Assembly: GCA_021814695.1 (NCBI GenBank)
Contig: JAKAHY010000004.1
Span: 24,481-88,480 of the forward strand
Direction of reading: 5' to 3'
Source: a bacterium
GTDB lineage: Bacteria; Patescibacteriota; Minisyncoccia; UBA6257; JAGOQP01
DNA length: 64,000 bases
In this document: positions 13,885-41,764 of the stretch, one piece after another
Numbering within the stretch: the stretch's first letter is position 1
Layout of the letters: the number at the start of each line of letters is the position of its first letter
Notes under the pieces: model-generated
Seen by the model: the letters and a program-made list of their open reading frames with translations, nothing else
Databases searched by the model: none
What the model was told of the DNA's origin: nothing
Program-made: the position numbers and the translations under genes

Positions 13885-13887
13885 ATT

Positions 13888-14652
13888 ATGCCAAGACGAT
13901 TAGGCCAGCATTTTTTGAGGAATGAGAATGTTTTGGAGAGCATAGCTGAGGCTCTCAAAATAAAAAACGGCGATTCAGTTATCGAAATTGGTCCGGGTCA
14001 CGGAGAGTTGACCAGATTTTTAATAGGCAGAGGAGCGATGGTTTTTGCAATTGAGAAAGATAAAGATCTTGTAACAAAAATAAGATCATCGGATATAGGG
14101 CAAAAAATTAAATTGATAGATGGGGATGCTTTACGATCAATTCCCAAAATAACCGAGACTCCCCCTTTATCTGTTGTTGATTATAAAATTGTGGGAAATA
14201 TTCCTTACTATATAACGGGCCATTTGATGAGAATCATCGGAGAATTGAAACATAAACCATCTGAAACAGTCCTGCTTATTCAAAAAGAGGTTGCTCAAAG
14301 AATTTGTTCTCAAGCACCCAATTCAAGCCTCCTTTCCCTAAGCGTCGGTTTTTGGTCAAATCCAAAAATTATTTCGAACGTTCCAAGAGAGGATTTTTTG
14401 CCACCACCCAAAGTTGATTCAGCGGTGATAAAAATGGACACCAAAAAAGAAATTTTGGAAATATGCAGTGAAAAATACTATGAATTTATAAAAAAAGCCT
14501 TCAAACAACCCAGAAAGACGCTCCTTAATAATCTAATATCAAGCGGGTTAAGCAGAGAAGATTCTTTAAATATAATCAAATCACTCGGATTAGGGGTCAA
14601 TTCCCGTCCTCAGGAGTTGGAATGCTCAAAAATAACAGCTATTTTGTGTTGA
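13888..14652 (+). CDS. rsmA: 16S rRNA (adenine1518/1519-N6)-dimethyltransferase
   Basis: 254 aa. GQHFL at the N-terminus and the SAM-binding VIEIGPGHGELT identify the KsgA/RsmA family. Confidence 0.85.
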   Translation: MPRRLGQHFLRNENVLESIAEALKIKNGDSVIEIGPGHGELTRFLIGRGAMVFAIEKDKDLVTKIRSSDIGQKIKLIDGDALRSIPKITETPPLSVVDYKIVGNIPYYITGHLMRIIGELKHKPSETVLLIQKEVAQRICSQAPNSSLLSLSVGFWSNPKIISNVPREDFLPPPKVDSAVIKMDTKKEILEICSEKYYEFIKKAFKQPRKTLLNNLISSGLSREDSLNIIKSLGLGVNSRPQELECSKITAILC

Positions 14653-14656
14653 AGGG

Positions 14657-15505
14657 TTGCGTAAGGTGTTGTATAATTTATTAATGAAAAGGCAGACTCT
14701 TGTTCTGACAATTTTTGGTGCCATTATATTGATTTTCTTTGGATACTGGATGTTTGACTCGGTTGTTTCTCAGAAAAACAACAACTCGGAAACGAAATCA
14801 TCTGTAACCGCCGGCACAAAATCATCGGCTATCACTTTAAACGACCTTCTCGATAAATATAATTTTAAAATTAATAACTCCAACACAACAAGCTCAAATA
14901 ATCTGGGTATAAATTCACCTGCGCAAAATAATTATACGGACACAATTAATAAGGATTTAAGCGGCCAATTTATTTCAGCAATACAATCAGGAATGGATGC
15001 TTCCAGCAGTGCCAATGCTATAGATTTTAATCCAACAACTCTTACTCAAATATCCCAGCAATCAATTCTGGCACTTAATAATGTTCCAAAAAATAGCGAG
15101 CTTAACATAATAAACGACAATTCTCTGGAAGCCTCCAGAAAATATTTTATTACCGCTCTCCCGCTTCTAATTAGCAGCTTCAGTTCTCTGCCGACAGGAT
15201 TCAACGATAAAGCAATTTCAAATATTTTTGAAAAAGGGGATTCATCACTTGCTCAGTTGGTATTGAAAACGAACGATAAATTAATTTCCGATTTGGAAAA
15301 AACTCCGGTTCCGGAAAAATATGTAGATCTGCACAAAAAAATTATCACTCAACTCAGAGGGATCTCTTTCGCATATGATGCATTGATAAATTATCAAACC
15401 GACCCATTTAAGCTGTTGTCTCTGGAAACATATCTTGGCGATATGGATAGTCGAGTCAATAGTTTGATGCAGGTCGTAATAGCAGAAAGATCGAAGGTAT
15501 TTTAG
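14657..15505 (+). CDS. Hypothetical N-terminally anchored, N/S/T-rich secreted protein
   Basis: 282 aa with an N-terminal TM/signal anchor and a low-complexity polar region. It is translationally coupled, with 4-10 nt gaps on both sides. Confidence 0.45.
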   Translation: MRKVLYNLLMKRQTLVLTIFGAIILIFFGYWMFDSVVSQKNNNSETKSSVTAGTKSSAITLNDLLDKYNFKINNSNTTSSNNLGINSPAQNNYTDTINKDLSGQFISAIQSGMDASSSANAIDFNPTTLTQISQQSILALNNVPKNSELNIINDNSLEASRKYFITALPLLISSFSSLPTGFNDKAISNIFEKGDSSLAQLVLKTNDKLISDLEKTPVPEKYVDLHKKIITQLRGISFAYDALINYQTDPFKLLSLETYLGDMDSRVNSLMQVVIAERSKVF

Positions 15506-15515
15506 GAAATATAAT

Positions 15516-16778
15516 ATGTCTAACCGAAAACCATTATTTTTTTTCACGCTGATTTTGTTTTCGGCATTATTTTTAGAGACTTCAATGGGCCAAGTCTTGC
15601 CGCTTAGTGGGGCCGATCTGAATTCTCTGACAAGTGGTCCGGATCTTAGTATTGGCCAAAAAAGTGGCTTAGTGTCTACTCTTCAAACTTTTCTTTCTCG
15701 GCAGGGAAAGGTTATCTATCCTGAGCAAATCGTGTCCGGTTATTTTGGTATTCTCACAAGATCAGCACTGTCTCGTTTTCAAAAAGAAAACGGGATTGCT
15801 CCGGCTCTGGGGTATTTTGGTCCGATAACAAAAAAATATCTCGCTTCTCATATAAGCTTATATTTATTAAACACCACAAACCAATCATCTTCTTCAAGCT
15901 CTCTTAATCAGTCATCGACCTCAAGCATTACTCCTCAGCCAGTTTTACAAATTACATCTTCAACGACCGTTCCCTCAATAGATTCCGGAATTAATGTTTT
16001 GGTTTCGGATAATGGAATAAACTCCAATGTTGATTATGCCAATATGCTGATCGATATTTCTAAAAATATTAAACTAACGGACGAAGATTTAAATAACACA
16101 AAAAAAATTAATTCAATTCCCTTGGCGTTGCCGGGATTGATGGATTGGGCGATATCAAAAAAACAGATTACAGACCAGGATCTAAAAAACACAGCAATCT
16201 TTTGGGAAAAGATAACCAACCAAACCCAATTAGCATTGGAACAAAAGACCGTTTCTCCGGCAATGGAATCTTATCACAAGACGATGATAGGTTGGTTTAA
16301 ATATAACTATCAAGTCGCGACAAAGATGGAATCCCTAAAAATATCCGATCCGTCACTCCAGTCTTTATTGGATCAATACAAATTAACGTATCAAAAATAT
16401 GGGCCTGCTTTGAATAAAAAACTCCAACTTTCCGATATGGAAAAAATTCAGGTTGGGATAGGCTGGAGATCATTTTTATCTGATTTGGGCATATTTAAAG
16501 TTGCTCAAGCGGCGGGTGGTATACCATTTGGAGGAATAATAACCATATCGGACATATGTTTGACGGGAGAATTATTAGTCGTATCTGCTCCGGCTCCAGG
16601 AGCCTTCTTCCTTTATTGGCCAATATATTTTACGAATCCATTTCTATATAACGCGGTTATAACCGGAAATTGGATATTGGGCGAAGCTCTGCCCGGTCCG
16701 GGAATTTGCAGTAAAACATTAATCAATTATACGGAAGGGGAAGGGGTCATCCTCTACTTTGGCACTGGATTACAGTAG
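15516..16778 (+). CDS. Secreted protein with a putative peptidoglycan-binding domain
   Basis: 420 aa with a signal peptide. Residues ~50-110 (LVSTLQTFLSRQGKVIYPEQIVSGYFGILTRSALSRFQKENGIAPALGYFGPITKKYL) fit the PG_binding_1 pattern. A Ser-rich linker and a C-terminal domain of unknown function follow. Confidence 0.5.
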   Translation: MSNRKPLFFFTLILFSALFLETSMGQVLPLSGADLNSLTSGPDLSIGQKSGLVSTLQTFLSRQGKVIYPEQIVSGYFGILTRSALSRFQKENGIAPALGYFGPITKKYLASHISLYLLNTTNQSSSSSSLNQSSTSSITPQPVLQITSSTTVPSIDSGINVLVSDNGINSNVDYANMLIDISKNIKLTDEDLNNTKKINSIPLALPGLMDWAISKKQITDQDLKNTAIFWEKITNQTQLALEQKTVSPAMESYHKTMIGWFKYNYQVATKMESLKISDPSLQSLLDQYKLTYQKYGPALNKKLQLSDMEKIQVGIGWRSFLSDLGIFKVAQAAGGIPFGGIITISDICLTGELLVVSAPAPGAFFLYWPIYFTNPFLYNAVITGNWILGEALPGPGICSKTLINYTEGEGVILYFGTGLQ

Positions 16779-16801
16779 CTTTAAAGCGGTATAATTTAAA
16801 C

Positions 16802-18295
16802 ATGACAGGTTTAATAAGAAAACTGGCGACGAAGGCATTGATATTTTTCGTAATCTTAGGATTAGTCACCATATCTCTTCCGGGATTGGTTTATCCAAAA
16901 CAAATTAATGCTCAAGGCGTTCCGGTCAACGATCTTCCGGCAGAGGGTAATTTAGGCACTCAAACAAGTTTGGGTTTTTGGCAGAAGGTGCAAAAATATT
17001 GGGAATTATACGTTCGTCCTGCCCTGAGGGATATGGCAGCAAAAAGATTAACGGACTATATTACTCAACAAACATTGGATTGGATAAACAACGGAACACA
17101 GCCGACATTTGTCGGAAATTGGAGCCAGCTCACCAAAGATGCTGGTAACATAGCCTTTGATAGTGTCAATAATTATTTAAAAACTGATGGTGTTGATTTG
17201 TGTTCTCCATTCGTTCCTCAAATACAAATAATGTTGCAAGGAACATTTATGCAGTCTCAGCCCATTAGTTGTAGTATAGATAATTTTTTGACAAACATAT
17301 CCAATTCTACCGACATGCTCAAACGAGGCGACTGGCTGACTTATTCTCAGGCTATTATGCCGGAAAATAACCCGATGGGATTATATCTAATTTCCGAAAA
17401 TAGAATTTATAGCGAATATTTGAGCCAACAAACAGCGCGCGTGAATGAAGCTGTTGCATCCAGCGGATTTTTGGGGACGAAAACTTGCACTAGCTATGGT
17501 AGTTACGGGTCGGTTGATGAGATACAAACAATGTGTAAAGACTCTGGTCACAAAAACGATCCTATTTGTAGTAGTAACCCATCAGTTAATACAGCTTGTC
17601 AACAGTGGGAGGTTCAGACCCCCGGAGATGTTGCCGGAAAAGCGGTTGCTAATGCGATTACCTCCGATACATTGTGGAGCGCCAATATACAGAATTTTAC
17701 CTCAGCTGTTATAAATGCTTTGGTATCAAAAGTTTTCCAAAAGGGGCTTGCGTCTCTTCAGTCGTCAAGCATAAATACGGATAGTGACCTTGCTCAAGGA
17801 GCCGATCCAAATGTGATTGCTAATTTTAACAGTGTGTCACGGGATTGGCTGAATACTTACGACGACACCATTTATTATCTGAATTCGACGGACTATCCGA
17901 CACTTCAAACATGGCTAGATGTTCAGTCTTTGGCTCAGCAAGGAATTTCGTCTTGTTCTTCAACGACCGAATGGCAACAGGAATATAATAACGTAACCAC
18001 TATTGTCAATGTGCTGCAAAATATGACTAATGCAGCAAATGAGGGAATAACAAATATAAACCAAGTCGATCCGGCAGCTCTCTCATCCGCCGAATTATCT
18101 CAGCAGATTACTCTATTAAGTTCCGACTTTTCTAATTTTTCCAGCACTTACGGGATTCTTCTTGACGAGATAAGTAGTGCCAAATCAAGTGGAAGTATGA
18201 CGCGAACGCAAACTGTTGGTCTTCAGGAAAAGAATTCCTTAACTACCGATTTGAGTCCCGCACCGGCTTGTATTTCTCCACTAACTTCACAATAA
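16802..18295 (+). CDS. Hypothetical Cys-containing secreted protein
   Basis: 497 aa with an N-terminal signal/TM segment and multiple Cys in the mature part. No recognisable catalytic motif. Confidence 0.45.
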   Translation: MTGLIRKLATKALIFFVILGLVTISLPGLVYPKQINAQGVPVNDLPAEGNLGTQTSLGFWQKVQKYWELYVRPALRDMAAKRLTDYITQQTLDWINNGTQPTFVGNWSQLTKDAGNIAFDSVNNYLKTDGVDLCSPFVPQIQIMLQGTFMQSQPISCSIDNFLTNISNSTDMLKRGDWLTYSQAIMPENNPMGLYLISENRIYSEYLSQQTARVNEAVASSGFLGTKTCTSYGSYGSVDEIQTMCKDSGHKNDPICSSNPSVNTACQQWEVQTPGDVAGKAVANAITSDTLWSANIQNFTSAVINALVSKVFQKGLASLQSSSINTDSDLAQGADPNVIANFNSVSRDWLNTYDDTIYYLNSTDYPTLQTWLDVQSLAQQGISSCSSTTEWQQEYNNVTTIVNVLQNMTNAANEGITNINQVDPAALSSAELSQQITLLSSDFSNFSSTYGILLDEISSAKSSGSMTRTQTVGLQEKNSLTTDLSPAPACISPLTSQ

Positions 18296-18296
18296 G

Positions 18297-20894
18297 TTGA
18301 TTTCAATGAATATTTTTTCGATTAAATCTAAACTAACTGCCGCAATATTTTTGATGATATTTGCGGTCTTGTTGTTTGTGGCACCGGCTAAATTGAACTT
18401 TGTGGGCTCATCTACGATTTCCGTTAATCAAGTATATGCGCAACAGACACAGGCCACCCAGGCTCAGCCGAATGCATCTGCTAAAGATCTATTAAGTTTA
18501 ACGCCCGTGGGACAAGCGGGGCTTGTTGTTGAGGCAATTCTTTATTTTATTCAAGCGGTATTGTATTTATTAATATCCATTACTGGTTTGTTATTTGGTG
18601 TTGCAGTTCAATTTAACTTGGATCTTTTGCAACCAGCTAATAATGTGGCGGTTTCGGTGGGGTGGGACATATTCCGCGTTATCACAAATTTGGGTTTCGT
18701 TTTGGGGATTATAATCATTGCCATAGGTACTATAGTTCGCAGCCGTTCGTATAGGGCTCAGCAGATACTCTGGCGTTTGATAGTGGCAGCTCTTCTGGTC
18801 AATTTCAGCTTAGTGATAGCAGGCGGAATCTTGCAAGTTAGCGATTCTCTAACTGGATATTTTTTGTCATCTCTGACAGGAACACAACAATATGATTTTG
18901 CCGGAGTAAATGTTCCACTCAACAGTCCCAATAATATGATAGTTGGAACTCTTGTAGCTGAGGTAACCGGATTCTTTAGGTTGCCAAATGTAGTTGTTCC
19001 ACAAGATAGTTCGGGCTGGTTTAATTCGTCGTTTCTAAAAGTTGCTAATGTAATTAGTCATGTGACGTTAGGGCCAACAATCCTTGAATTATTTTCTTTA
19101 GTCCTTACCGTTGTTGTGTTTCTCATCGTCTTTCTTACGCTGCTAGTTTTGTCTTTGCAGGTTTTTGTGCGTTATTTCTTTATAACCGTGCTTTTGATTG
19201 TTTCTCCAATAGTATGGCTGATGTGGATATTTCCATTCGGACAACGATGGTGGAGAGAATGGTGGAACCATTTTATTAAGTGGGCTTTTATGTTGCCTTT
19301 AAACCTGTTCTTTTTGTGGCTAGCTATAGCCCAACTTCAAGGGGTTATTTATGGGACTATGACAAAAAAAGTCACAAACCTCATGTCTTCCATGCAATAT
19401 GTCATTGGAGGGAATGTTGATTTTGGTTCAATTATGGGTTCGCTAATGGCCGTTGGTTTCATAATTTTAGGAATGAAGTTGTCACATAAACTTGGTATAG
19501 CTGCTGCAGATGGAGGAATAAAGATTGCTCAAAATGCTGGAAATAAAATTAAGGAAAAAGCCGCCAGAGGTGCTGGTGCCGGATTTGCGAGGGTTGGCGG
19601 TGGAGTAGCTGCAGAAACCATCGGTGCAAAGATGTCCACTTGGGCTGGTGCAAGAAAGGGGGCGGTAACGGGTTGGGTTGCCAGAGAAACCGTTGGCCGT
19701 GCGGGAAAGGGATTGATAGGTGTTGGCGCAACGGCGGAGAAAAGAAAGGCGGAACCTGTTTTTGGTAGGCCCCCCGAAGATTTTCTAAAAGAATACTCTC
19801 AGTGGACTCCTGATAGGCTAATTAAAGCGTATGCTGGCGCACCTCGAGAGCAACAGCTCGCGATTTTAATGACGCTAGAATCAAAAAAGAAGCTCACTGC
19901 TGAAAATGTAGAAAAACTTGGAGGAACAGAGGCTCTTTTGAATCAAGCTGATTATCTTGAAGGGGGCGGCAGAAAGCCGATTGCAGATAATATTAAAATC
20001 GCAATAGGAGATGATAGGACAACATATAATGCAAGAAAGGCGATTGATGCTATATCAGACCAGGTTGAAGAACGAAACGTTACCAAAGACGAATTAGTCG
20101 CGCTTGAATCTCGCCGTGCCAATCTTGAAGAACAATCCAAAACTTCACAGAATGAAATTGATAACGCTAATAAAGAACTCGAAGATGCTAGGGCAAAGGG
20201 TGATTTGAAGAGAGGGGGCGAAATTCAGGATAAAATTAGTGCTAGCAAAAAAGTTCTTGAGAGTGCAAAATCTGAAATTTCAACTATTAATTCACAGATT
20301 CAGCCCCTAAAAACAAAACTTGAACCTCTCGAAGCTGTTGTTGGACCACGCGAAAAGGAGCTTAATAACGCTAGAGCAAGTTTCAATTCCAAATTCAAGA
20401 AGCCAGAAGAACAGAAAAGGATTAACGAAGCAATATTCTCCAAGGAAGAGGAATTTGAGCAGGGCGAAGATGGCAAAGAGGGGAAGAGCAATCTTACCGC
20501 AGGTCAAAAACTTGATAGGATTGCTCAAGCTGAATTTATTAACTCAGAGCCGACTGGCCGCAGGCTACACGATGTTATTCCTTCAATGAACACTGACTCA
20601 AAATTAGAGGGGCTTATGAGGTCATTGGTTTTATCGGCGACTAAACAAAATCGGTTAACTGGAGATTTAAAAACTGCTTTTGATGGGGCTTTTAGAGGTA
20701 GTGGCAGCGTTAAAGATCTTATATACACAATGAAAAAATATGGAGTTCGTGATCAACGTCTTTTCAAGAGACTTGAAAAGCAGATTGACAGAACTATCGC
20801 TGGCGATTTGGGATTTTCTGAGAGTGGCACCAATAAAGAAAAGGAAAATGAGTCGAGTAAGGACGATGGTGGAAAGTCGGAGGAGAAAAAATAA
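18297..20894 (+). CDS. VirB6/TrbL-like polytopic membrane protein with a long coiled-coil/Gly-Ala-rich C-terminal extension
   Basis: 865 aa. After a signal peptide there are about 6-8 hydrophobic helices across residues ~60-400. The C-terminus is hydrophilic, with a G/A-rich segment (GAGAGFARVGGGVAAETIGAK...) and a K/E-rich coiled coil. The assignment rests on topology and context only. Confidence 0.4.
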   Translation: MISMNIFSIKSKLTAAIFLMIFAVLLFVAPAKLNFVGSSTISVNQVYAQQTQATQAQPNASAKDLLSLTPVGQAGLVVEAILYFIQAVLYLLISITGLLFGVAVQFNLDLLQPANNVAVSVGWDIFRVITNLGFVLGIIIIAIGTIVRSRSYRAQQILWRLIVAALLVNFSLVIAGGILQVSDSLTGYFLSSLTGTQQYDFAGVNVPLNSPNNMIVGTLVAEVTGFFRLPNVVVPQDSSGWFNSSFLKVANVISHVTLGPTILELFSLVLTVVVFLIVFLTLLVLSLQVFVRYFFITVLLIVSPIVWLMWIFPFGQRWWREWWNHFIKWAFMLPLNLFFLWLAIAQLQGVIYGTMTKKVTNLMSSMQYVIGGNVDFGSIMGSLMAVGFIILGMKLSHKLGIAAADGGIKIAQNAGNKIKEKAARGAGAGFARVGGGVAAETIGAKMSTWAGARKGAVTGWVARETVGRAGKGLIGVGATAEKRKAEPVFGRPPEDFLKEYSQWTPDRLIKAYAGAPREQQLAILMTLESKKKLTAENVEKLGGTEALLNQADYLEGGGRKPIADNIKIAIGDDRTTYNARKAIDAISDQVEERNVTKDELVALESRRANLEEQSKTSQNEIDNANKELEDARAKGDLKRGGEIQDKISASKKVLESAKSEISTINSQIQPLKTKLEPLEAVVGPREKELNNARASFNSKFKKPEEQKRINEAIFSKEEEFEQGEDGKEGKSNLTAGQKLDRIAQAEFINSEPTGRRLHDVIPSMNTDSKLEGLMRSLVLSATKQNRLTGDLKTAFDGAFRGSGSVKDLIYTMKKYGVRDQRLFKRLEKQIDRTIAGDLGFSESGTNKEKENESSKDDGGKSEEKK

Positions 20895-20908
20895 AAAAAT
20901 AATAACCG

Positions 20909-21967
20909 ATGTATCAACCAACACGGCAACAAGTTATCACGCAATGGGAGCAGATGCCGGACATTCTTCGTGAAGCAATGCACTCTTCCCTTACTATAGA
21001 CGAAATTGATAACATTCAGACAAATTTTCATCTATCAGATGATAAAAGTAATACATTGGCCCGATTGATACGCGGCGTATTTTATGGGCTCATACACACA
21101 GAGGATTTATATAAAGAAATCAAGGACTCTCTTCAAATTGATCCGCGGTTAGCATTGGATATTTATCACGAAGTAGATAAAAAAATATTTGAGTCATTCA
21201 GGAAAGAGATAGAAGATAATTTTATAAGATCTAAAATTGGGGCCATAAAAGAATCGGAGGTGCCAAAGCCAAAATCCGTTCCTGCTCAAGTTGTCTTAAA
21301 AGAAGGTCCTGAAGTTATTAATCTTAAGCCCGAATCTGCAGTTTCCGAAACCCCAACAAAGTTGAAAGTTGAGGGTGTTCAAAAACCGTCAGAACCGGCT
21401 CCAATGCCCATCGGTCAAATTAATATAAAACCTGAGCCGATTACTGTTATTTCTTCGGCAAGTCCCAAGCCCCAATTTTCACCGATTGCTCAACAATCGA
21501 AACCTCCGGTTGCGCCAGTCACTCCTTGGCAAAAACCGGATGTTCCATCACAACCAAAAGCTGAGCCTGTTGGAGCCACCGAAGGTCCGATGATTATCCA
21601 TCAAAAAGAAGAGTCAATATCGGTATCTCAAACTCAAGCTGCCAGTCCTTTTAGGCAGAATTCTTTCGGAGGTTACATGGGATCGTTTAGGTCATTTTCC
21701 GGCCAGGCGCCACAAGCTCCGGTGTCTTCGGCAAAAATAGAAATGCCTTCCGGACAGAAGCCGGTTTCGGGCCAAACCGAACAAAAGATTCCGGTGGTGA
21801 TAAAAAAATATGAAGAAGAGCCGGCAAAAACAATTCATTATAGCGAACTAAAAACTCCGGTTACGCCCAAGAAAGAAAGTATGCCGCAGACTTCTGCGCC
21901 TGTCGTTGCCAAAAAACAGCCACCTGAGGGGATGGTTAATCTGTCCGATCTTACGTTCAGGAAATAG
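20909..21967 (+). CDS. Hypothetical proline-rich protein
   Basis: 352 aa. An N-terminal helical region is followed by a long P/S/Q-rich, likely disordered, segment. No TM helix. Confidence 0.4.
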   Translation: MYQPTRQQVITQWEQMPDILREAMHSSLTIDEIDNIQTNFHLSDDKSNTLARLIRGVFYGLIHTEDLYKEIKDSLQIDPRLALDIYHEVDKKIFESFRKEIEDNFIRSKIGAIKESEVPKPKSVPAQVVLKEGPEVINLKPESAVSETPTKLKVEGVQKPSEPAPMPIGQINIKPEPITVISSASPKPQFSPIAQQSKPPVAPVTPWQKPDVPSQPKAEPVGATEGPMIIHQKEESISVSQTQAASPFRQNSFGGYMGSFRSFSGQAPQAPVSSAKIEMPSGQKPVSGQTEQKIPVVIKKYEEEPAKTIHYSELKTPVTPKKESMPQTSAPVVAKKQPPEGMVNLSDLTFRK

Positions 21968-22010
21968 CTCCTTATGCGCTTTTTTCCAGTTTTTGATATA
22001 CTATAGTTAT

Positions 22011-22538
22011 ATGGCTCAATTCCAAGTGCCTCAATTTCTCGATATAGAAAGTAAAATTGTCGGCCCTTTGACGCTGAAGCAATTTGCATTCATAGCGGCT
22101 CCATCACTTATTTCTTTCTTTCTTTTCTTTACTCTCAATACTGTTGTCTGGGTTATTATTGCGGCTATTTTAATACTAACCGGAGTTGCATTTGCGTTCA
22201 TTAAACTCAACGGTAGGCCTCTATATATTATGGCCATTCATGCCGTTACGTTTTTTTGGCAGCCAAAGACTTTCTTTTGGAAAAGGCCGTTGGTCCAGGA
22301 AGTGGTTAATGTTCCAACAGCTACGGTAGAAGCCAAGCGTAGCGCTTTGCAAACAGCCTTACAGGGGATTTCGGGAATATCCAAATTATTTCAAGATCTT
22401 ACAACGACCAAAAATCCGATACCCAAACGCGAGAAAGTGGTCCCTAAAAAAACAATAACGGAGATAAGAGAGCAGTACCAGGTTTTCAGACGGGTTAGCG
22501 GTGAACAACAAGTAGCCCGACGCGTCGATTATAGATAG
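22011..22538 (+). CDS. PrgI/VirB3-like small membrane protein
   Basis: I restarted the track ORF 21906-22538 at ATG 22011 (MAQFQVPQFLDIESKIVGPLTLKQFAFIA...). It has two adjacent TM helices and lies immediately upstream of VirB4, which fits the PrgI/VirB3 topology. The track's upstream start adds a Cys-rich leader with no support. Confidence 0.4.
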   Translation: MAQFQVPQFLDIESKIVGPLTLKQFAFIAAPSLISFFLFFTLNTVVWVIIAAILILTGVAFAFIKLNGRPLYIMAIHAVTFFWQPKTFFWKRPLVQEVVNVPTATVEAKRSALQTALQGISGISKLFQDLTTTKNPIPKREKVVPKKTITEIREQYQVFRRVSGEQQVARRVDYR

Positions 22539-22548
22539 AGCTTAGTGA

Positions 22549-23244
22549 TTGAAGATAAGGTGGTGTATACTTATAAATAATATGGCCGAAACAACAATCG
22601 CTCCGAATTCAACCCAGCAATTTGTAGATATTGAGGAAATCAAGGACGGTATCGTCCACCTTAAAGGCGGCGGATTGCGGTCCGTTATTATGGTTGCGGG
22701 AGTAAATTTTGAACTGAAATCGGAAGAAGAGCAGGACATAATCACCGCCGGATATCAGGATTTTTTGAATTCACTGGACTTTCCCCTGCAGATAGTTATT
22801 CACTCACGGAAATTAAGCATAGATAAATATCTAAAGTCGGTTCAAGAAAGGCGCGATCAGGAGCCGAGCGAACTTTTGCGTAATCAAATTGACGAATACA
22901 CGGAATTTGTTAAAGGTTTTGTCAAAGAAAACGAGATAATGACCAAGACTTTTTTTGTGGCGGTTCCTTATGAAGGAGGGGGTGCGGCATCAATCAAAAA
23001 AGGAGTCTTAGGATTTTTTGGAGGGAATAAAAAGAAAAATGCCAAAAAAGAAAAGGAAGAAAGCTTTGAACAACAATTAACCCAGCTTCGCCAGCGAATC
23101 GACCAGGTTTTGGGAGGACTTGAAAGAATCGGTTTGCGCGCGGTGGTGTTAAATGACGACGAGCTGACCGAGCTTTATTACAATTTATACAATCCTGAAA
23201 CAGTCGAGAAAAAAATTCCCAAAGAAGCAGGTATAAAACAATAA
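22549..23244 (+). CDS. VirB4-family N-terminal domain, encoded as an ORF separate from the ATPase
   Basis: 231 aa. The segment DGIVHLKGGGLRSVIMVAGVNFELKSEEEQDIITAGYQDFLNSLDFPLQIVIHSRKL resembles the N-terminal region of Gram-positive-type VirB4/TraE proteins. Its TAA stop is 2 nt before the downstream ATPase ORF, which is in a different frame. Confidence 0.5.
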   Translation: MKIRWCILINNMAETTIAPNSTQQFVDIEEIKDGIVHLKGGGLRSVIMVAGVNFELKSEEEQDIITAGYQDFLNSLDFPLQIVIHSRKLSIDKYLKSVQERRDQEPSELLRNQIDEYTEFVKGFVKENEIMTKTFFVAVPYEGGGAASIKKGVLGFFGGNKKKNAKKEKEESFEQQLTQLRQRIDQVLGGLERIGLRAVVLNDDELTELYYNLYNPETVEKKIPKEAGIKQ

Positions 23245-23246
23245 AT

Positions 23247-25004
23247 ATGGCGGAACAGATTAAAATAGTAAAACCATATACCGGAGGCGAAGCATCCGAT
23301 GTGCGAAATCTTATTGCACCCTCGGCGGTAGAGGTAGACCAAAATTACGTCAAAATCGGCAATAAATATGCCAAGACTCTCTTTGTATTTTCTTATCCTA
23401 GATTTCTTTCCGGGGGATGGTTTTCGCCAATCATAAATCTGGCAAAACTTTTTGATATTTCTATTTTTGTCCATCCTGTAGATACTGCCTTGGCATTGCG
23501 AAGCTTAAGGAAAAAAGCCGCTCAAATTGAAGCCGAAATCGGCGAAAAGCAATCCAAAGGTTTTGTGCGTGACCCGATGCTTGAGACTGCCTTTGCTGAT
23601 ATTGAATCTCTGCGTGATAATCTTCAGCAGGCGCGCGAAAGGCTTTTTGATGCAGCGGTTTACGTTACTTTTTACGCCGACACCGTCGAAAAGCTGAATG
23701 AATTGGAAGAAATAATTACCAATATTTTCGAAAGTAAAATTATCTATGTGAAACCGGCTACCTTCCAACAAATGGAGGGTTATGTGTCCACGCTGCCTTT
23801 GGCCGAAGACAAACTCGATATACAAACACCGCTGAACTCCGGTCCAATTTCTTCTTTTTTCCCGTTTGTTTCTATGGACCTGACTTCCGATACGGGAATT
23901 TTATACGGAATAAATCAGCACAATAACACTCTCGTAATCTTTGATAGGTTTTCTTTGGAGAATGCCCACCAGGTGGTGTTTGCAAAATCCGGTTCCGGAA
24001 AATCATACGCCACAAAACTTGAAATTCTGCGCACGCTGATGATGGGCACAAAAGTTATGGTTATTGATCCGGAGCAGGAATACAAAAACCTGAGCGATAC
24101 GGTTGGTGGAACATACTTTAAGATTTCTCTGACTTCCGACCAGCACATAAACCCGTTTGATATTCCGGTAATACCTCAAGGCGAAGATCCGGCCGATGTT
24201 TTTAAATCTCATATCTTAACTCTGACGGGACTGCTTAAAATAATGCTCGGAGATATTAGCGTGGAAGAAGAGGGTCTTTTGGACAGGGCGCTTACCGAAA
24301 CTTATGCATCGCGGGATATCATTCCGACAAACCCAAAATTTTTGGAAATTGAACCGCCACTACTTTCGGATTTGGAAACCGTTTTGAGAAATATGGAAGG
24401 AGGCAGACCGATGGCCGAACGTTTGTATAAATTTACCCAGGGGACTTATTCCGGATTTGTGAACCAGAAAACCAATATAGATATGAGCAATCGGCTGATA
24501 GTGTTTTCCATCCGCGATTTGGAAGAGGAGCTCAGACCGGTGGCTATGTATGTTATTTTGAATTTTATCTGGAATACGGTCAAAGCTAAACTTGAAAGAC
24601 GCATTTTGGTTATTGATGAAGCATGGGTAATGATGAAATATCCGGAAGGGGCTTCGTTTTTGTTCGCTTTAGCCAAGAGAGGGCGCAAGTATTATCTTGG
24701 TATCACTACAATTACCCAAGAAGTGGACGATTTCTTGAATTCTCCTTATGGGAAGCCTATTGTTTCCAACTCTTCATTGCAGCTTTTGTTAAAACAATCG
24801 CCAACCAGCATAGATACGATTGCCAAAGCATTTAATTTAACCGATGCCGAAAAGAATCTTCTACTTGAAGCGGGAATCGGTCAGGGACTATTCTTCGCCG
24901 GACTTAAGCATGTTGCAATCCAAGTAGTGGCATCTTATTTTGAAGATAAGATAGTTACGACAAAGCCGCAGCAGCTTTTGGATGAAGGCGGATCTCTTTT
25001 GTAA
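23247..25004 (+). CDS. VirB4/TrbE/CagE-family type IV secretion ATPase, core and C-terminal part
   Basis: 585 aa. It has Walker A FAKSGSGKSYATK, Walker B RILVIDEAWVMM (the DEAW motif typical of VirB4) and an N-terminal YAKTLFVFSYPRFLSGGWFSPI. The combined length with the upstream ORF is about 816 aa. Confidence 0.8.
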   Translation: MAEQIKIVKPYTGGEASDVRNLIAPSAVEVDQNYVKIGNKYAKTLFVFSYPRFLSGGWFSPIINLAKLFDISIFVHPVDTALALRSLRKKAAQIEAEIGEKQSKGFVRDPMLETAFADIESLRDNLQQARERLFDAAVYVTFYADTVEKLNELEEIITNIFESKIIYVKPATFQQMEGYVSTLPLAEDKLDIQTPLNSGPISSFFPFVSMDLTSDTGILYGINQHNNTLVIFDRFSLENAHQVVFAKSGSGKSYATKLEILRTLMMGTKVMVIDPEQEYKNLSDTVGGTYFKISLTSDQHINPFDIPVIPQGEDPADVFKSHILTLTGLLKIMLGDISVEEEGLLDRALTETYASRDIIPTNPKFLEIEPPLLSDLETVLRNMEGGRPMAERLYKFTQGTYSGFVNQKTNIDMSNRLIVFSIRDLEEELRPVAMYVILNFIWNTVKAKLERRILVIDEAWVMMKYPEGASFLFALAKRGRKYYLGITTITQEVDDFLNSPYGKPIVSNSSLQLLLKQSPTSIDTIAKAFNLTDAEKNLLLEAGIGQGLFFAGLKHVAIQVVASYFEDKIVTTKPQQLLDEGGSLL

Positions 25005-25006
25005 TA

Positions 25007-25825
25007 TTGCTGCTGGCTTTAACAGTTATGAATAACGACCAGCTAAAACTTACCGATTTTTTTGACCCGATTGTACAACTTGCCATCGGGTTGGCGGTTG
25101 CGGGCGATATTCTTTTTATAGTGCTGCCTTTACGTTATATATTCGCCGTTATTATCGGCATAGTTCTTTGGCAGGGAATGAAAGGATTTTTAACAAAATT
25201 CGTTTTTATTATTTGTCTTGTTCTGCCTTTACCGCTGATGACGATAGGAACTATATTGGGGATTATTCTTTCGAACGGAGTGGTAAGAATGATAGCTACT
25301 CAGGTTGCAATACAAGCCTTATCGGTTGCTACCGTAGGGGGAGCCGAAGTTCTTGAAGTTGGTGCTGTGGCGGAGACGGCTGCCGCCGGAGCGGAAGCGG
25401 TTGCCGGTACGGCAGCTGCAGCAGCCGAAGCGGGAGCAGTTGGGGCCGAGGCCGCCGCTGCCGGAGCTGAGGTTGCCGGTACTGCGGCTGAGGCTGGTGT
25501 TGGTGCGGTAGAAGAAGCAGCCGGAGCCATACCTAAGCCAGTGGGGCCTTCGGCACAGCCCCCGGAAATGCCGGGACCTCAAGCCCAGCCGGAAGAAGCC
25601 AAAAAACCATCCCTTAAAGAAAGGGCTAAAGGCAAAGTTGTTGAAAAAATAAAAGAAAAGCTTGCTGAAGATATCGCTGAAGAAGGAGGGCCAAGCGACG
25701 AAAATGAGAACGAAGAAGAATCCAATATAATTCAAGGAGAATTCGGAAATCCGGACATCAGTGATTTAGAAAGCCAAGAACAAGAAGAGGATGAGAATAT
25801 TGTTGATTTGAGGAAAGCAGCTTAA
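25007..25825 (+). CDS. Hypothetical polytopic membrane protein with an Ala/Gly/Glu-rich repeat region and an acidic tail
   Basis: 272 aa with 3-4 N-terminal TM helices. The region A(E/G)A(V/A)AGTAAAAAEAGAVGAEAAAAGAEVAG is encoded by a local GC-rich imperfect repeat (~25320-25520). The C-terminus is E/D-rich. Confidence 0.4.
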   Translation: MLLALTVMNNDQLKLTDFFDPIVQLAIGLAVAGDILFIVLPLRYIFAVIIGIVLWQGMKGFLTKFVFIICLVLPLPLMTIGTILGIILSNGVVRMIATQVAIQALSVATVGGAEVLEVGAVAETAAAGAEAVAGTAAAAAEAGAVGAEAAAAGAEVAGTAAEAGVGAVEEAAGAIPKPVGPSAQPPEMPGPQAQPEEAKKPSLKERAKGKVVEKIKEKLAEDIAEEGGPSDENENEEESNIIQGEFGNPDISDLESQEQEEDENIVDLRKAA

Positions 25826-25861
25826 TTCTAAGAAAAATTCATTTGTGTTATACTATATCAA

Positions 25862-26578
25862 ATGAACCGTTTGCTAAAAATCTCGGTAATATTTGTCTTT
25901 TCTATTATAATCGTGGCATTTGGCGTTAACTACGCTCAAGCGGCAGACCCGCAATTTTTGGTTTCGTGGAAAGCCGATACAAGCGCTCCACAATCATATA
26001 TGGGAAAAATTATGCCGGTAAGCGGATCTACTATAACCATTTCCTTTGAACTTATAGGCACAACCGGTAATCAGGCTGGAAAAGTTTTAGATCTGACAAA
26101 TAGCAATGTCCGTTGGTATATTAACGGGAATCTCCTTTCTCAGGGGAAGAATGAAAAGACATTTTCATTTATTACGGCAGACAATAATGATACCGAAACG
26201 GATTTAAAGATTTCGGCCGAGTACGCCGATCCGGTTGCCGGTTACAGTTATTTTGTGGATAAATACGTTACAATCCCCTTATCACATCCTCAAGTGGTAA
26301 TAAATCAAAATAAAATAAGCAGCTCCATTGCTGTCGGTTCGGGAACTCAATTGTTTGCATTGCCGTATTTTTTCAATGCTCTTATAAAAAATTTAAGCAT
26401 ACAATGGGTGGCTAACGGCCAAAATATTCCTATTGATCCTAAAGATCCATGGAATCTCAGCGTCAATATAGGTTCAAATTATATTTCCGGATCACAGGTG
26501 ACTATTTCGGCGGTTGTTCAGAGCATTTTTGATTCTTCGATTCAGGCACAAAAAAATCTCATTATTACGGTTCAATAA
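25862..26578 (+). CDS. Hypothetical secreted beta-rich protein
   Basis: 238 aa with a signal peptide (…NYAQA/ADP). The composition is that of a beta-strand-rich protein. Confidence 0.4.
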   Translation: MNRLLKISVIFVFSIIIVAFGVNYAQAADPQFLVSWKADTSAPQSYMGKIMPVSGSTITISFELIGTTGNQAGKVLDLTNSNVRWYINGNLLSQGKNEKTFSFITADNNDTETDLKISAEYADPVAGYSYFVDKYVTIPLSHPQVVINQNKISSSIAVGSGTQLFALPYFFNALIKNLSIQWVANGQNIPIDPKDPWNLSVNIGSNYISGSQVTISAVVQSIFDSSIQAQKNLIITVQ

Positions 26579-26579
26579 T

Positions 26580-27452
26580 ATGAAAAAATTTATTCGAAAA
26601 ACAATTTTATTGGCGGCTCTCATTTTTGTGATTGGGGGGATTTATAACTTTGTTTTTGCCACTAATGTCACGTTGGAATACCCCGCATTTACTCGAGCTC
26701 CGAGTCCTGCCGACATGGTGGGCCAGATTTATACCTATGCTTTAAGTATCGCAGGTGCGCTTGCAATTATTCGTGTCGTATATGGCGGAATAGTCTATAT
26801 AATAAGTGCCGGCAATACATCAAAACAATCCGATGCCCGGGATATTATTACCAGCGCTATCTGGGGATTGGTGCTTTTGGCCGGATCTTATCTTCTTTTA
26901 AATACCATCAATCCGGAAATAGTTCAGCTTAAAAATCCGAATCTTACTCCATCTGCTTTAATAAAAGGCACAGGGGGTCAAATTGGAGTTGTCCCAAGCG
27001 GAGGGTTTGGTGGCATCAGCGAGCAGTCGGCCCGTACCGAACTGACCGCCGGTTTAGTGCAGGTAAAACCCCAATGTTCTCCGGGACAAACTGCCTGCGC
27101 CACTCTTGATAATATCCAACAATCAACCGTGGATGAATTACTTGCATTAAAACAGTATTGCGATGCTCAGGAAGGCAGCTCTTGTAAAGTTTTGGTAAAT
27201 GAAGGAACTGGAGGTTCTCACAGCGAGACCGGAACGCTTACTCACGCCAACGGGTATAAAGCCGATTTAAATTACACCCCCAGTGATCCCCTGACATCAT
27301 ATATAGAAAGCTGGAACAAAGTCGGTCCGGCAAGTGTTCCTGCGGAGATACAAAAAGGCTGCTCAACTTATAGTTGTTATCAAAGTCCGACCGGAGCAAT
27401 TTATATGCTTGAGGGAGATCATTGGGACGTTACCGTTCCACCTAAAAAATAA
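26580..27452 (+). CDS. VirB2/TrbC-like pilin fused to a Cys-rich C-terminal domain
   Basis: I restarted the track ORF at ATG 26580 (MKKFIRKTILLAALIFVIGGIYNFVFA, a signal peptide). Two hydrophobic helices (IYTYALSIAGALAIIRVVYGGIVYIISAG and AIWGLVLLAGSYLLL) are separated by a short charged loop, which is the T4SS pilin topology. A ~170-aa extension with 6 Cys follows. Confidence 0.45.
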   Translation: MKKFIRKTILLAALIFVIGGIYNFVFATNVTLEYPAFTRAPSPADMVGQIYTYALSIAGALAIIRVVYGGIVYIISAGNTSKQSDARDIITSAIWGLVLLAGSYLLLNTINPEIVQLKNPNLTPSALIKGTGGQIGVVPSGGFGGISEQSARTELTAGLVQVKPQCSPGQTACATLDNIQQSTVDELLALKQYCDAQEGSSCKVLVNEGTGGSHSETGTLTHANGYKADLNYTPSDPLTSYIESWNKVGPASVPAEIQKGCSTYSCYQSPTGAIYMLEGDHWDVTVPPKK

Positions 27453-27455
27453 AAA

Positions 27456-28661
27456 ATGAAGCGAACCGCAATAATTATTATAGTAGTCATTATCGCCGTG
27501 GCAGTTGCTGTCGGGGTTTATTTAGGATATCAGAAATCAAAAAGTGTTATTTCTCTAACCGGTTCGACGCAACAAGGAGCTTTGCCTATAGGCACTAGCA
27601 ATGGAGAGGCGGCCGGTAGCACAAATCAGGGGGGCGCGGCATCGGCAGAAAATATTTCATCCACAAGCACCGAAGAAGCCGGCTATTTTCAGGACCAAAA
27701 ACAGAGACTGTCGATTCTGACAACTCAGCCGGTCATGGGTTATTGGATGACAGTGCCTAAAATTGCCTCAACTACGCCACAGATATTTTATCTTGACCAG
27801 AAAGGAGAAGTTGTAGAGATTGACCAGACGGGCAAGGAAAATGTTGTTTCTAATTCAAATTTGGGAATTCCCGTGCGAAGCCTTCAGAATATAGACGGAT
27901 CAAAGGTGATAGTCCTATTTGATTCGGGAATACTGGCTATTTTTGACACTGCCTCAAAGGTTTGGCAATCATTGGATTCGTCAATATCTTCATTTGTCTT
28001 TTCGCCCGATGGGAAAAGCATCGCTTATGTAAAACCCAATGGCGCCAGAAATTCCATATATACTCAGAATATTTCTACAACCAAGAAGAATTTAACGCTC
28101 GTAGCGACACTTAACATACAGGATTTTTCTATCGCCTGGCCTTCTGTTAGCACGATAATTCTTGTTCCTAAGCCGGCAAACCAGTTTTATGGTCAAGCGT
28201 GGTATCTGAATTTAAAAAATAATACTCTTAATTCTTTGGGGTTTGGTAATGGGCTTGATTATGTTTTTTCTCAGAAAGCCAATTATGGAATTCAATTCAT
28301 TTCAACCGACAGAAGCAAAATTTCGGTTTCCATAATTAATGACTCCGGAAAAAAACTTGCCGACATGCCATTTTCTTCCATAGCAGCTAAATGCTCGTTT
28401 GCCCAAGACGCGATAGCGGCTTATTGTGCCATACCGGTATCATATACGGGCGGTGCTGTTACTCTTCCGGATGATTATTTAAAGAAAGCGACATTTAGTA
28501 ACGACTCTATTTATAAAATAGACTTATCTTCATCCCAACTCACAAAAATTGTGGATTCGGGTACGGCCTTAATTGATGCGACCGATATAAGAGCGGCAAG
28601 CTCGACTTTGCTCTTTGTAAATCGTCTTGATGGCATGTTATATAGATTTAATATGCAGTAA
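27456..28661 (+). CDS. Membrane-anchored protein with beta-propeller (TolB/PD40-like) repeats
   Basis: 401 aa with an N-terminal TM segment. It contains repeated motifs such as FSPDGKSIAYV. Confidence 0.45.
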   Translation: MKRTAIIIIVVIIAVAVAVGVYLGYQKSKSVISLTGSTQQGALPIGTSNGEAAGSTNQGGAASAENISSTSTEEAGYFQDQKQRLSILTTQPVMGYWMTVPKIASTTPQIFYLDQKGEVVEIDQTGKENVVSNSNLGIPVRSLQNIDGSKVIVLFDSGILAIFDTASKVWQSLDSSISSFVFSPDGKSIAYVKPNGARNSIYTQNISTTKKNLTLVATLNIQDFSIAWPSVSTIILVPKPANQFYGQAWYLNLKNNTLNSLGFGNGLDYVFSQKANYGIQFISTDRSKISVSIINDSGKKLADMPFSSIAAKCSFAQDAIAAYCAIPVSYTGGAVTLPDDYLKKATFSNDSIYKIDLSSSQLTKIVDSGTALIDATDIRAASSTLLFVNRLDGMLYRFNMQ

Positions 28662-28663
28662 TT

Positions 28664-29998
28664 ATGGCCGCAAACATTTCATCAAAACCAGGAGTCTCCA
28701 AGTATCTTTCACAGCCAGAATTTCGTCCGGTTTATTATCTATCGCCGCTTTTAATAATTGTGCTGATAGTGTCTTTCCTTTATGTGCCCGCAAGCCTTGT
28801 ATTGATTCCGGTTTTGGCGGTTGTCGCTGTTCTGGTGCTGATGGTGGCCTTAAGTTGGCGCCTTTCCAAAGCTAATATTAATGTCAAAACGGAAACACAG
28901 CAGGTACAAAGCATAATAGCTCATCTTAATATTGGAGTGGTTGCTTATGATAACGACTTTAAAGTTCTGATTTTCAATCCGGCCGCTGAAGAAATATTTG
29001 CACTTAATCGTGGAGATATAGTGGGACAAAAATTATCGGCCGCTATGGCCAGTGATCCGAAATTTAAAGTGCTTGCACAAGTCGTCTTTTCTTCTCTGGC
29101 ACCGACGGTTATCAAGCGTTCTGACCCGGGAGTTTATCCTCAAATTATTGACGTCTCATTTGATGAACCGATGCTTGAGTTGAGGGTTGTGACTGACAAG
29201 ATCTTTGACGAGAAAGGCGCCGTGAGCGGGTTTGTTAAGCTTATTACCAACAGAACGCGCGAGATAGAGTTGTTAAAATCAAAAACAGAATTTATTACCG
29301 TTGCCGCTCACCAGTTGCGCACTCCGCTGACCGCCATCAACTGGGCGTTGGAAAGTTTGGAAGGCAGCCAATTACAACCTCAACAGAAAGAATTGGCCGA
29401 CACCGGATTTTTAGCCGCCAAAAAAATGCTTAAAACAGTCAACGACTTATTGGACGTGGCAAAAATCGAAGAAGGGCGTTTTGGATATCAATTTGAAGAA
29501 GTTAATGTGGTCTCATATCTGGAAGATATACTTTCCCAGTCGAATGATATCGCCAAGCAATACAACATAAAACTTTATTTTCAAAGACCAAAGGAGTCTT
29601 CTATCTCGGTATATATCGATCAGCAAAAGATGAGTATGGTTCTTTTTAATCTCATAGACAACGCCATCAAATATAATGTCGAAAACGGTTCGGTGACCGT
29701 ATCTGTCGAGAAAGTAAATAACGAACCATACGTAAAGATAACAATCAAAGATACGGGAATCGGCATTCCGGCAAACCAGATGGACAAATTATTTACTAAA
29801 TTTTTCCGAGCCGACAACGTTGTTAAGTTTTCCCCGGACGGTACGGGGATGGGCTTATATATAGTCAAAAATATTGTTACGCGCCATGGTGGGAAAATTT
29901 GGGTTGAGTCGGAATTAAATCGTGGGACGACTTTCTACTTTACGGTACCGACCAGCAAAGACATGATACCCAAAAAAGAACTGGTTGAATTTGAATGA
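28664..29998 (+). CDS. Membrane-bound sensor histidine kinase (PAS-HisKA-HATPase)
   Basis: 444 aa with two N-terminal TM helices. The H-box AAHQLRTPLTAI, N-box NLIDNAIKYN, G1 DTGIGIP and G2 GTGMGLYIV are all present. No response regulator is adjacent. Confidence 0.85.
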   Translation: MAANISSKPGVSKYLSQPEFRPVYYLSPLLIIVLIVSFLYVPASLVLIPVLAVVAVLVLMVALSWRLSKANINVKTETQQVQSIIAHLNIGVVAYDNDFKVLIFNPAAEEIFALNRGDIVGQKLSAAMASDPKFKVLAQVVFSSLAPTVIKRSDPGVYPQIIDVSFDEPMLELRVVTDKIFDEKGAVSGFVKLITNRTREIELLKSKTEFITVAAHQLRTPLTAINWALESLEGSQLQPQQKELADTGFLAAKKMLKTVNDLLDVAKIEEGRFGYQFEEVNVVSYLEDILSQSNDIAKQYNIKLYFQRPKESSISVYIDQQKMSMVLFNLIDNAIKYNVENGSVTVSVEKVNNEPYVKITIKDTGIGIPANQMDKLFTKFFRADNVVKFSPDGTGMGLYIVKNIVTRHGGKIWVESELNRGTTFYFTVPTSKDMIPKKELVEFE

Positions 29999-30061: not shown

Positions 30062-30274
30062 GTGCATGGAGATAGCATGCTGACTATGACGTCGAAAGAA
30101 AGGAAAATTGTCAGGTCTTTATTGGCTTTAGCCGGTGGAAACTCAGATATTGTTTTTTCGGCGCTTACCGAAAGCTCCAAAAGAAATGGGGGAAATCCCA
30201 GAATGGAAGAGGTTCAAAAGCTTATAAAAGAATACTTGTCAGGAAGGCCACTTGATCACTTATTTCGTTGCTAA
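30062..30274 (+). CDS. Hypothetical small protein (70 aa)
   Basis: A stand-alone ORF with its own extended -10 (30042-30049) and a downstream terminator. No recognisable motifs. Confidence 0.4.
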   Translation: MHGDSMLTMTSKERKIVRSLLALAGGNSDIVFSALTESSKRNGGNPRMEEVQKLIKEYLSGRPLDHLFRC

Positions 30275-30293
30275 CCGCATTAGCGGTTTTTTT
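30273..30293 (+). terminator. Rho-independent terminator
   Basis: Stem AACCGC / GCGGTT with loop ATTA, followed by a T-run (TTTTTTTG). Confidence 0.55.
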
Positions 30294-41659: not shown

Positions 41660-41680
41660 AAGATTTTTATTTGTAATATG

Positions 41681-41764
41681 TGCCCGGGAGAGGATTTGAA
41701 CCTCCATGACCTTGCGGTCACAGCGACCTGAACGCTGCGTGTCTGCCAGTTTCACCACCCGGGC
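41681..41764 (-). tRNA. tRNA-Leu (anticodon CAG)
   Basis: Reverse complement GCCCGGGTGGTGAAACTGGCAGACACGCAGCGTTCAGGTCGCTGTGACCGCAAGGTCATGGAGGTTCAAATCCTCTCCCGGGCA. It has a 7-bp acceptor stem, D arm, anticodon loop TT-CAG-GT, a long variable arm (class II), a T arm GGAGG/CCTCT with TTCAAAT loop, and discriminator A. CCA is not encoded. Confidence 0.8.

Follow-up and report, generated by a model that had tools for sequence, protein, structure and literature searches.

Does a chromosomal run of genes that resembles a type IV secretion system (T4SS), with neither a relaxase nor a coupling protein beside it, belong to a conjugative element or to the cell that carries it? We considered this question for the locus at positions 14657-28661 of a 64-kb stretch of contig JAKAHY010000004.1, the whole of which is called the window here. 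The locus is very probably the resident chromosomal T4SS of a Paceibacteria/Wolfebacteria-like bacterium, a member of a Patescibacteria-specific lineage that would derive from the MPF_FATA conjugation machinery of Gram-positive bacteria. It is a typical copy of the relaxase-less chromosomal T4SS already published for the Patescibacteria (candidate phyla radiation, CPR), and the kind is not new, because the defining features that can be tested here are present, with VirB6 as a candidate recognised through orthologues. An earlier note on this DNA had called such loci poorly characterised as a class, which is out of date given the published surveys.

Core genes of the locus

The locus is a string of 12 open reading frames (ORFs), all on the + strand and tightly packed, with 1-43 nt from one to the next. 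The earlier note had likewise described a contiguous string, counting 13 genes where the ORF listing gives 12. The string is bounded by KsgA (13888-14652) on one side and by a histidine kinase on the other. Table 11 code reads through all of its genes, and an alternative code is unnecessary. The libraries used were Pfam, NCBIfam and PDB profiles, and transmembrane (TM) helices were taken from a TM scan. Four of the 12 ORFs have a match of their own above a curated cutoff (PG_binding_1, PrgI, VirB4 and T4SS_pilin), and a fifth, a propeller, was recognised through an orthologue profile. The genes that make up the recognisable T4SS core are these:

18297-20894, + strand: g4, VirB6-like protein of 865 aa, with about 8-9 TM helices in residues 1-392 and a hydrophilic, coiled-coil-like tail of about 470 aa
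22011-22538, + strand: g6, PrgI/VirB3-like protein with TM helices at residues 22-40 and 46-64
22549-23244, + strand: g7, TrsD-like protein, the VirB4 N-terminal domain as a gene of its own
23247-25004, + strand: g8, VirB4 ATPase, the C-terminal two thirds
26580-27452, + strand: g11, 290 aa, with a signal peptide, two TM helices (PF18895 module) and an extracytoplasmic C-terminal domain of about 140 aa

The profile searches that the earlier note had proposed gave matches above the curated cutoffs for the PrgI, VirB4 and T4SS_pilin families. The two-helix PrgI/VirB3-like protein is matched by PF12666 (28.3 bits, cutoff 27), and the protein picked out as a pilin from its VirB2-like topology by PF18895 (28.3 bits, cutoff 26.6).

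Positions 22549-25004 had been read as a single VirB4-family ATPase gene with a DEAW Walker B motif. The ATPase and its motif stand, but the single gene does not: a TAA stop at 23242-23244 ends g7, and the ATPase ORF runs from 23247 in a different frame. The start of g7 is likely to be the ATG at 22582. g7 is matched by the N-terminal parts of several NCBIfam models, namely VirB4_plasma (7.4e-10), VirB4_CagE (1.2e-6), TrsD (1.6e-6) and CD1110 (1.9e-6), all of these matches being far under the curated whole-protein cutoffs of the models. It also has a precomputed match to PF26593 (TraC-like) and is 50% identical (E 4e-64) to residues 9-222 of P0111, a fused VirB4 of 791 aa from a relative. The ATPase, g8, is matched in Pfam by P-loop_TraG (8.5e-29), AAA_10 and DUF87. 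Its NCBIfam match is NF045971, the VirB4-like conjugal transfer ATPase of the CD1110 family, at 373.7 bits against a cutoff of 325 (VirB4_CagE gives 108.5 bits), and it covers positions 185-733 of the 752 in that model, that is, without the N-terminal part supplied by g7. By these scores g8 is closest to the CD1110 VirB4 family of conjugative elements in Clostridioides difficile, which suggests an affinity to MPF_FATA. In an alignment of 14 VirB4 sequences neither Walker A (GSGKS) nor Walker B (DEAW) varies, and g8 has at least 8000 homologues, almost all of about 585 aa.

We considered the possibility that the split is a frameshift or sequencing artefact. This is excluded by the relatives, in which TrsD and VirB4 are separate genes at 68 of 70 loci and fused at two, and by its preservation at three places, each in a different sample (ENA assemblies for two of them, a Logan run for the third), with the protein found on 11 contigs. 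Since it is seen in 68 of 70 species and in three different samples, the split is the normal state and not an error. The two fused genes (L019:9341-11713 and L043:9404-11713) encode proteins of 769-790 aa and lie in more compact loci, with KsgA about 5 kb upstream, the pilin directly 3' of VirB4 and no match to g3, the gene that here precedes the VirB6-like one. The fusion seems to be the ancestral condition, before any split, or else the result of a secondary re-fusion.

The 865-aa protein g4 is polytopic, as had been noted, while its identity as VirB6 comes through orthologues only. Of 80 related loci, 56 have an orthologue of g4, and the Pfam TrbL/VirB6 family PF04610 is matched by three of 23 positional orthologues (best E 1.1e-6). 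We accept g4 as a putative extended VirB6 by transitivity from these orthologues and from its position, which is not a direct demonstration. PDB profile search, tried as another route to VirB6, returned only coiled-coil noise out of the tail.

Chromosomal setting, relatives and mobility

If the locus were an ordinary integrative conjugative element, or the decaying remnant of one, one would expect the relaxase, coupling protein and integrase to be located beyond the stretch or to have been lost recently. The kinship of the core genes agrees with such an origin, as VirB4 is nearest to the conjugative CD1110 family of C. difficile elements, and PrgI and TrsD are parts of Gram-positive conjugative plasmids. 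The surroundings do not agree. We considered the ORFs of the window together with about 8 kb upstream, and the Pfam-assignable genes around the locus are all housekeeping genes, which elsewhere in the 64 kb comprise rnpA, yidC, jag, polA, Nramp, UvrD, KsgA, Fpg, RuvA, a Mur ligase, RNase J, a tryptophanyl- or tyrosyl-tRNA synthetase, NusA, H+-PPase, ClpP, SHMT, FolD, RecA and FtsK. Pfam scans of the window found no relaxase, VirD4, VirB11, integrase or transposase, and searches for repeats flanking the locus gave only chance-level matches, so that the absences reported earlier hold across the 64 kb. A relaxase or type IV coupling protein (T4CP) with an integrase just outside the window had been named beforehand as refuting a resident system; no relaxase, T4CP or integrase is present in the roughly 8 kb upstream. 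The sole FtsK-family protein (59221-61326) carries alpha and gamma domains and is, for that reason, taken to be the chromosomal translocase. The only tRNA gene of the window, tRNA-Leu(CAG) at 41680-41764 (-), does not adjoin the locus, and the GC content of the locus, 0.37-0.44, is that of its flanks.

The setting is also a conserved one. Two groups of genes mark it:

1201-2681: rnpA-yidC-jag
12100-14652, + strand: UvrD and KsgA (RsmA), the conserved upstream flank (Pfam)

The window begins inside dnaA (1-143, - strand), with dnaN beyond it (seen in the related locus L084), and this dnaA end is about 14.5 kb from the first T4SS gene. Cumulative GC skew climbs over the entire window. These data agree with the earlier placement of the locus between uvrD/ksgA and core genes near the replication origin.

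Relatives were scanned with one genome per species, and the counts for each gene come from the 80 best loci. In species-representative genomes at least 591 stretches were confirmed among the 600 examined. The closest g8 homologues with a source name are from Wolfebacteria, Paceibacterota or Patescibacteria. As had been proposed, gene order was compared in related genomes, and it recurs in the Paceibacteria: UvrD, KsgA, (g1, g2), g3, g4 (VirB6-like), (g5), PrgI, TrsD and VirB4 lie in this order on one strand, followed in the best loci by a small TM protein, (g10), the pilin and the propeller. This order is shared by loci from Wolfe-, Harrison-, Jorgensen-, Kaiser-, Nomura-, Giovannoni- and Azambacteria, among others. 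TrsD is matched in 78 of the 80 loci, PrgI in 73 (directly 5' of TrsD and VirB4) and the pilin in 57, and upstream we found KsgA in 41 and UvrD in 29. Because this chromosomal neighbourhood is common to many lineages, the system is a resident one that is inherited vertically, and not a mobile island. All of the ORFs in the locus are intact and VirB4 is 57-79% identical across related species, which argues that the locus is under selection rather than decaying.

The published record points the same way. In a survey of 3,035 Patescibacteria genomes (Quinonero-Coronel 2025), VirB4 was present in 2,417, nearly all of it in one clade nested in MPF_FATA, with TrsD (the most abundant component), PrgI/VirB3, VirB6 and VirB2-like pilins near virB4 (PMC12102498). 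VirB8 and VirB1 were seldom detectable in these loci and relaxases almost absent, the latter being present in 103 of the 3,035 genomes and near virB4 in just 15, and the Paceibacteria locus is often near dnaA, dnaN, rnpA, ksgA and rpmH (PMC12102498). With gene order and the UvrD-KsgA flank kept in dozens of species, no mobility genes and no shift in GC content, we consider an integrative conjugative element or its remnant very improbable, and the earlier preference for a resident apparatus of a reduced-genome organism over a conjugative element is borne out.

Some points weigh against reading the locus as a resident T4SS of this lineage. The VirB6 candidate g4 has itself no Pfam match, and neither VirB8 (NTF2) nor VirB1 (lysozyme/CHAP), for which a check had been suggested, was recognised in any ORF by Pfam and NCBIfam sequence scans, and g3, g5, g9 and g10 have no family assignment. 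The scan for mobility genes covers the 64 kb and about 8 kb upstream, so that a T4CP or relaxase may lie farther off in the genome; in most Patescibacteria genomes VirD4-like matches are distant from virB4 (PMC12102498). The Paceibacteria system is known from genes alone, unlike the Saccharibacterial one, which is known from experiment, and pilus formation, host contact and cargo would all be carried over here from homologues.

The pilin and the remaining genes

The PF18895 module of the pilin g11 is kept in 41 of 50 positional orthologues, while the C-terminal part varies between species; orthologues with differing C-termini include the following:

L043:12143-12952
L039:13695-14582
L046:12761-13708

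Recognised peptidoglycan-active domains make up the C-terminal part in six of the 50: Peptidase_M23 (2e-33), Peptidase_M15_3 (8.5e-16), VanY twice (4e-12) and YkuD twice (1.7e-15). The C-terminal domain of g11 has motifs like those of the LAS zinc peptidases (VanX/VanY, M15 and the Hedgehog N-domain fold), which share with it H-x6-D and E-x-x-H, here H222-x6-D229 and E278-x-x-H281. All of the 45 homologues compared have D229, E278 and D283, and H222, H281 and W282 each reach a conservation of 90% or more; in 32 sequences of the domain, H72, D79 and H131 (domain numbering) do not vary. The likeness extends to the orthologues of g11, among which are pilins with true VanY and M15_3 domains in this position. 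Unlike the LAS zinc peptidases, the g11 domain is attached to a VirB2-like pilin and lies outside any Pfam family. It appeared to be an orphan in a word-index search, but a full phmmer search found at least 348 cluster representatives, and of 45 homologues sampled, the pilin module is present in 38 and a Pfam family over the domain in none. The only PDB profile matches were to Hedgehog N-domains, aligned on the motif and not statistically significant, and no significant profile or fold match to a LAS structure was obtained.

It is probable, although unproven, that g11 is a pilin fused to a LAS-type wall peptidase. More tentatively, the VirB2-like pilin of the Paceibacteria may be a modular carrier, whose extracytoplasmic domain evolves fast, can be exchanged for another and acts on the cell wall. 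If this is so, a pilus that displays the fusion or is polymerised from it would itself cut or remodel peptidoglycan, and this activity could stand in for the missing VirB1 or open the host wall where the cells make contact. We found no description of pilin-peptidase fusions in the T4SS literature searched.

The other genes of the string, and the histidine kinase that follows it, are these:

14657-15505, + strand: g1, 282 aa, with one N-terminal TM anchor (residues 8-26)
15516-16778, + strand: g2, secreted peptidoglycan-binding protein of 420 aa, with PG_binding_1 at residues 52-105
16802-18295, + strand: g3, 497 aa, membrane-anchored or secreted, with conserved cysteines, directly 5' of the VirB6-like gene
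20909-21967, + strand: g5, 352 aa, no TM helix, an N-terminal domain of about 110 aa and then a Pro/Gln-rich low-complexity region
25007-25825, + strand: g9, small membrane protein with TM helices at residues 35-53 and 66-84 and an Ala-rich, acidic, low-complexity tail
25862-26578, + strand: g10, secreted protein of 238 aa, with a signal-like TM helix at residues 4-22 and a beta-rich look from sequence
27456-28661, + strand: g12, membrane-anchored TolB-like beta-propeller with a TM helix at residues 5-23
28664-29998, + strand: histidine kinase, PAS-HisKA-HATPase (Pfam), after a 2-nt gap from g12

Two of these genes bear out earlier assignments. The peptidoglycan-binding secreted protein, g2, is matched by PG_binding_1 (Pfam) at 27.4 bits against a cutoff of 23; it has a hydrophobic segment at its N-terminus and a weak resemblance to the SleB N-domain (NCBIfam), and is present in two of the 80 related loci. 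The beta-propeller is g12, whose profile, built from 25 orthologues, matches TolB beta-propeller structures in the PDB (E 1.3e-11), with orthologues in 43 of the 80 loci.

The first gene, g1, starts 4 nt past the end of KsgA, has nothing above Pfam or NCBIfam cutoffs and is poorly conserved, with a tblastn match in two of the 80 loci. By comparison with these counts g3 is widespread (35 of 80), keeps its position and has invariant Cys, Gly and Pro columns in its alignment; no family matches it in Pfam, NCBIfam or the PDB profile search, and Foldseek against the PDB came back empty. Its AlphaFold2 model has a predicted local distance difference test score of 60 and is confident only in a C-terminal helical bundle (residues ~340-490). 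That bundle, with the position before VirB6, suggested a VirB5-like protein, a candidacy that found no support from PDB profiles, the AlphaFold2 model or Foldseek. No Pfam or NCBIfam family matches g5, which is present in six of the 80 loci, and g10, with orthologues in 16, gave only sub-threshold hints of Ig domains in Pfam and nothing in the PDB profile search. For g9 there is no sequence match in the 80 related loci, although a small ORF with 2-4 TM helices lies directly 3' of VirB4 in many of them, and g9 is thus a positionally conserved, fast-evolving component. A match of g9 to TrbL (NCBIfam, 2.1e-5, 23.8 bits against a cutoff of 442) was set aside as probably compositional because it lies inside the Ala-rich tail.

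In the closest relative, L001, the histidine kinase (53% identity) is found at the same position; of the 80 loci, L025 is the only other one to have it, about 9 kb downstream. The sole good terminator-like site on the + strand is at 30273-30288, none lying between g12 and the kinase gene, and a scan for promoters gave sites no more frequent than in shuffled sequence. From this arrangement the kinase is probably co-transcribed with the T4SS operon, while a functional tie between the two is uncertain. No response regulator was recognised among the window ORFs scanned. Farther downstream, an ORF at 31278-32084 is conserved 3' of the T4SS locus in L001; together with those at 6144-7340, 51035-51733 and 58228-59166, it is one of four ORFs of 232-398 aa that have no Pfam match at E<=1e-5.

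Several observations concern the window at large. An ORF of 185 aa at 366-923 lies between dnaA and rnpA, the expected location of oriC, and was assigned to no family. In the mechanical call of the RNase J ORF (39905-41758, -), which has a GTG start, the first 79 nt lie within the tRNA-Leu(CAG) gene; the actual start of RNase J is probably further downstream. Rfam recognised no RNA family in the window. There is a full-length membrane H+-translocating pyrophosphatase at 47031-49007 (Pfam H_PPase, E 2.6e-260), a possible route to a membrane potential in a phylum reported to be without a respiratory chain.

Possible function and comparison with known systems

By analogy with known T4SSs, PrgI would hold VirB4 hexamers (g7 and g8 together) at the membrane, and VirB4 would power the extraction of pilin and its polymerisation through or around the VirB6 channel. 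The outcome may be a pilus or conduit that spans the monoderm wall, with the cell-wall-binding, propeller and putative wall-cutting modules opening a space in the wall, and the structure would touch the host cell that carries the epibiont. The role of T4SSs in Patescibacteria has been described as "completely unknown" (PMC11665869), and a 2025 review names them as a newcomer to the superfamily, with function stated as unknown (PMC12857230). In Southlakia epibionticum, transposon sequencing found the T4SS and its pilin array to be essential (Wang 2023, PMC10633639), and the T4CP homologue of Southlakia is non-essential (PMC12102498).

We favour a T4CP-independent role, because no T4CP is present in the 64 kb or the ~8 kb upstream and because the T4CP homologue of Southlakia is dispensable while its T4SS is essential. 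ComB of Helicobacter pylori and the archaeal Ced system are uptake systems that combine a VirB4-type ATPase with a polytopic channel protein and work with neither a relaxase nor a coupling protein; ComB has a VirB2-like protein in addition. Ptl, a Sec-fed exporter, and the VirB effector system of Brucella have also been named as lacking a T4CP (PMC12102498, PMC12857230). Since the characterised T4SSs without a T4CP include ComB and Ced along with these two, and the Southlakia T4CP homologue is non-essential, we lean slightly toward host contact with uptake of host macromolecules in the manner of ComB or Ced, a tentative choice made by analogy and slightly preferred over export or adhesion.

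A more specific form of this proposal is a dedicated import of nucleic acids, functionally like ComB or Ced, that would bring host DNA or RNA into a cell unable to make nucleotides. We hold it possible, at about the same tentative level. T4CP and relaxase were not found nearby, g8 is weakly similar to CedB (46.9 bits), the possibility has been raised in PMC11665869, and a 2026 preprint ties a Minisyncoccota parasite to feeding on host RNA and describes tubular structures, possibly T4SS pili, at the parasite-host interface. The CedB score is, however, far under the cutoff of 700 and well below the scores of the conjugative VirB4 models; Pfam and NCBIfam matched none of the locus ORFs to a Ced or ComB partner family, and no nucleic-acid binder is recognisable in the locus. 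Uptake by a Patescibacteria T4SS would be an analogy with ComB and Ced. A low CedB score lowers the case for membership in the Ced/ComB group and not that for an analogous uptake function. That competence (ComEC) is dispensable in Southlakia while the T4SS is essential is neutral on import by the T4SS (PMC12857230).

Export of effectors or enzymes, for example wall-degrading enzymes delivered to the host cell, strikes us as slightly less probable than uptake. Wang 2023 proposes protein export as an alternative to DNA transfer (PMC10633639), and among the products of the locus are several secreted proteins, besides a pilin that bears a putative peptidase domain. Those secreted proteins have Sec-type N-termini, however, and so need no T4SS to leave the cytoplasm, and no effector-like genes were recognised. 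Export of proteins by a T4SS normally requires a T4CP, or else loading that depends on Sec, and the neighbourhood yielded no T4CP. A pilus that serves adhesion only would be less likely still.

The importance of the Patescibacteria T4SS lies in its being essential in the one species tested and near-universal in a huge uncultivated radiation, to which this window adds one more typical Paceibacteria copy. It also provides a corrected gene model, with a TrsD-like gene and an ATPase gene, and a table of components for the Paceibacteria layout. The variable, peptidoglycan-active C-termini of the pilins suggest where the "missing VirB1" function may sit, and they offer a testable handle on how such an apparatus might cross one or two cell walls.

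Among known systems, H. pylori ComB differs from this locus in having the diderm core ComB7-10, and CedB of the Sulfolobales Ced system is only distantly like g8. The MPF_FATA systems of Gram-positive bacteria (Prg/Pcf of pCF10, Trs of pGO1 and the C. difficile conjugative transposons of the CD1110 family) are closer, sharing a CD1110-type VirB4, a VirB3 of the PrgI family and a TrsD like that of pGO1; outer-membrane core proteins were not recognised here either. They are mobile, with a relaxase, a T4CP, VirB8-like scaffolds and a VirB1-like hydrolase, and without VirB2 pilins, whereas in the present locus, which is fixed in the chromosome, a pilin is present and genes for DNA processing were not found. 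Closest of all are the T4SSs of the Patescibacteria clade, represented by Southlakia SEML1_0006-0019. With these it shares a VirB4 of MPF_FATA affinity beside a separate TrsD gene; PrgI/VirB3, a candidate VirB6 and a VirB2-like pilin near virB4 with no relaxase or coupling protein nearby (neither is recognisable in the Southlakia T4SS; PMC10633639); and a chromosomal site near dnaA and ksgA in a monoderm organism of reduced genome. The Saccharibacterial locus has an array of about six divergent pilin genes, together with peptidase and lysozyme genes after virB4, and here a single pilin gene is recognised; unlike that locus, this one carries a putative LAS-type domain on its pilin, a TolB-like propeller and a PG_binding_1 protein.

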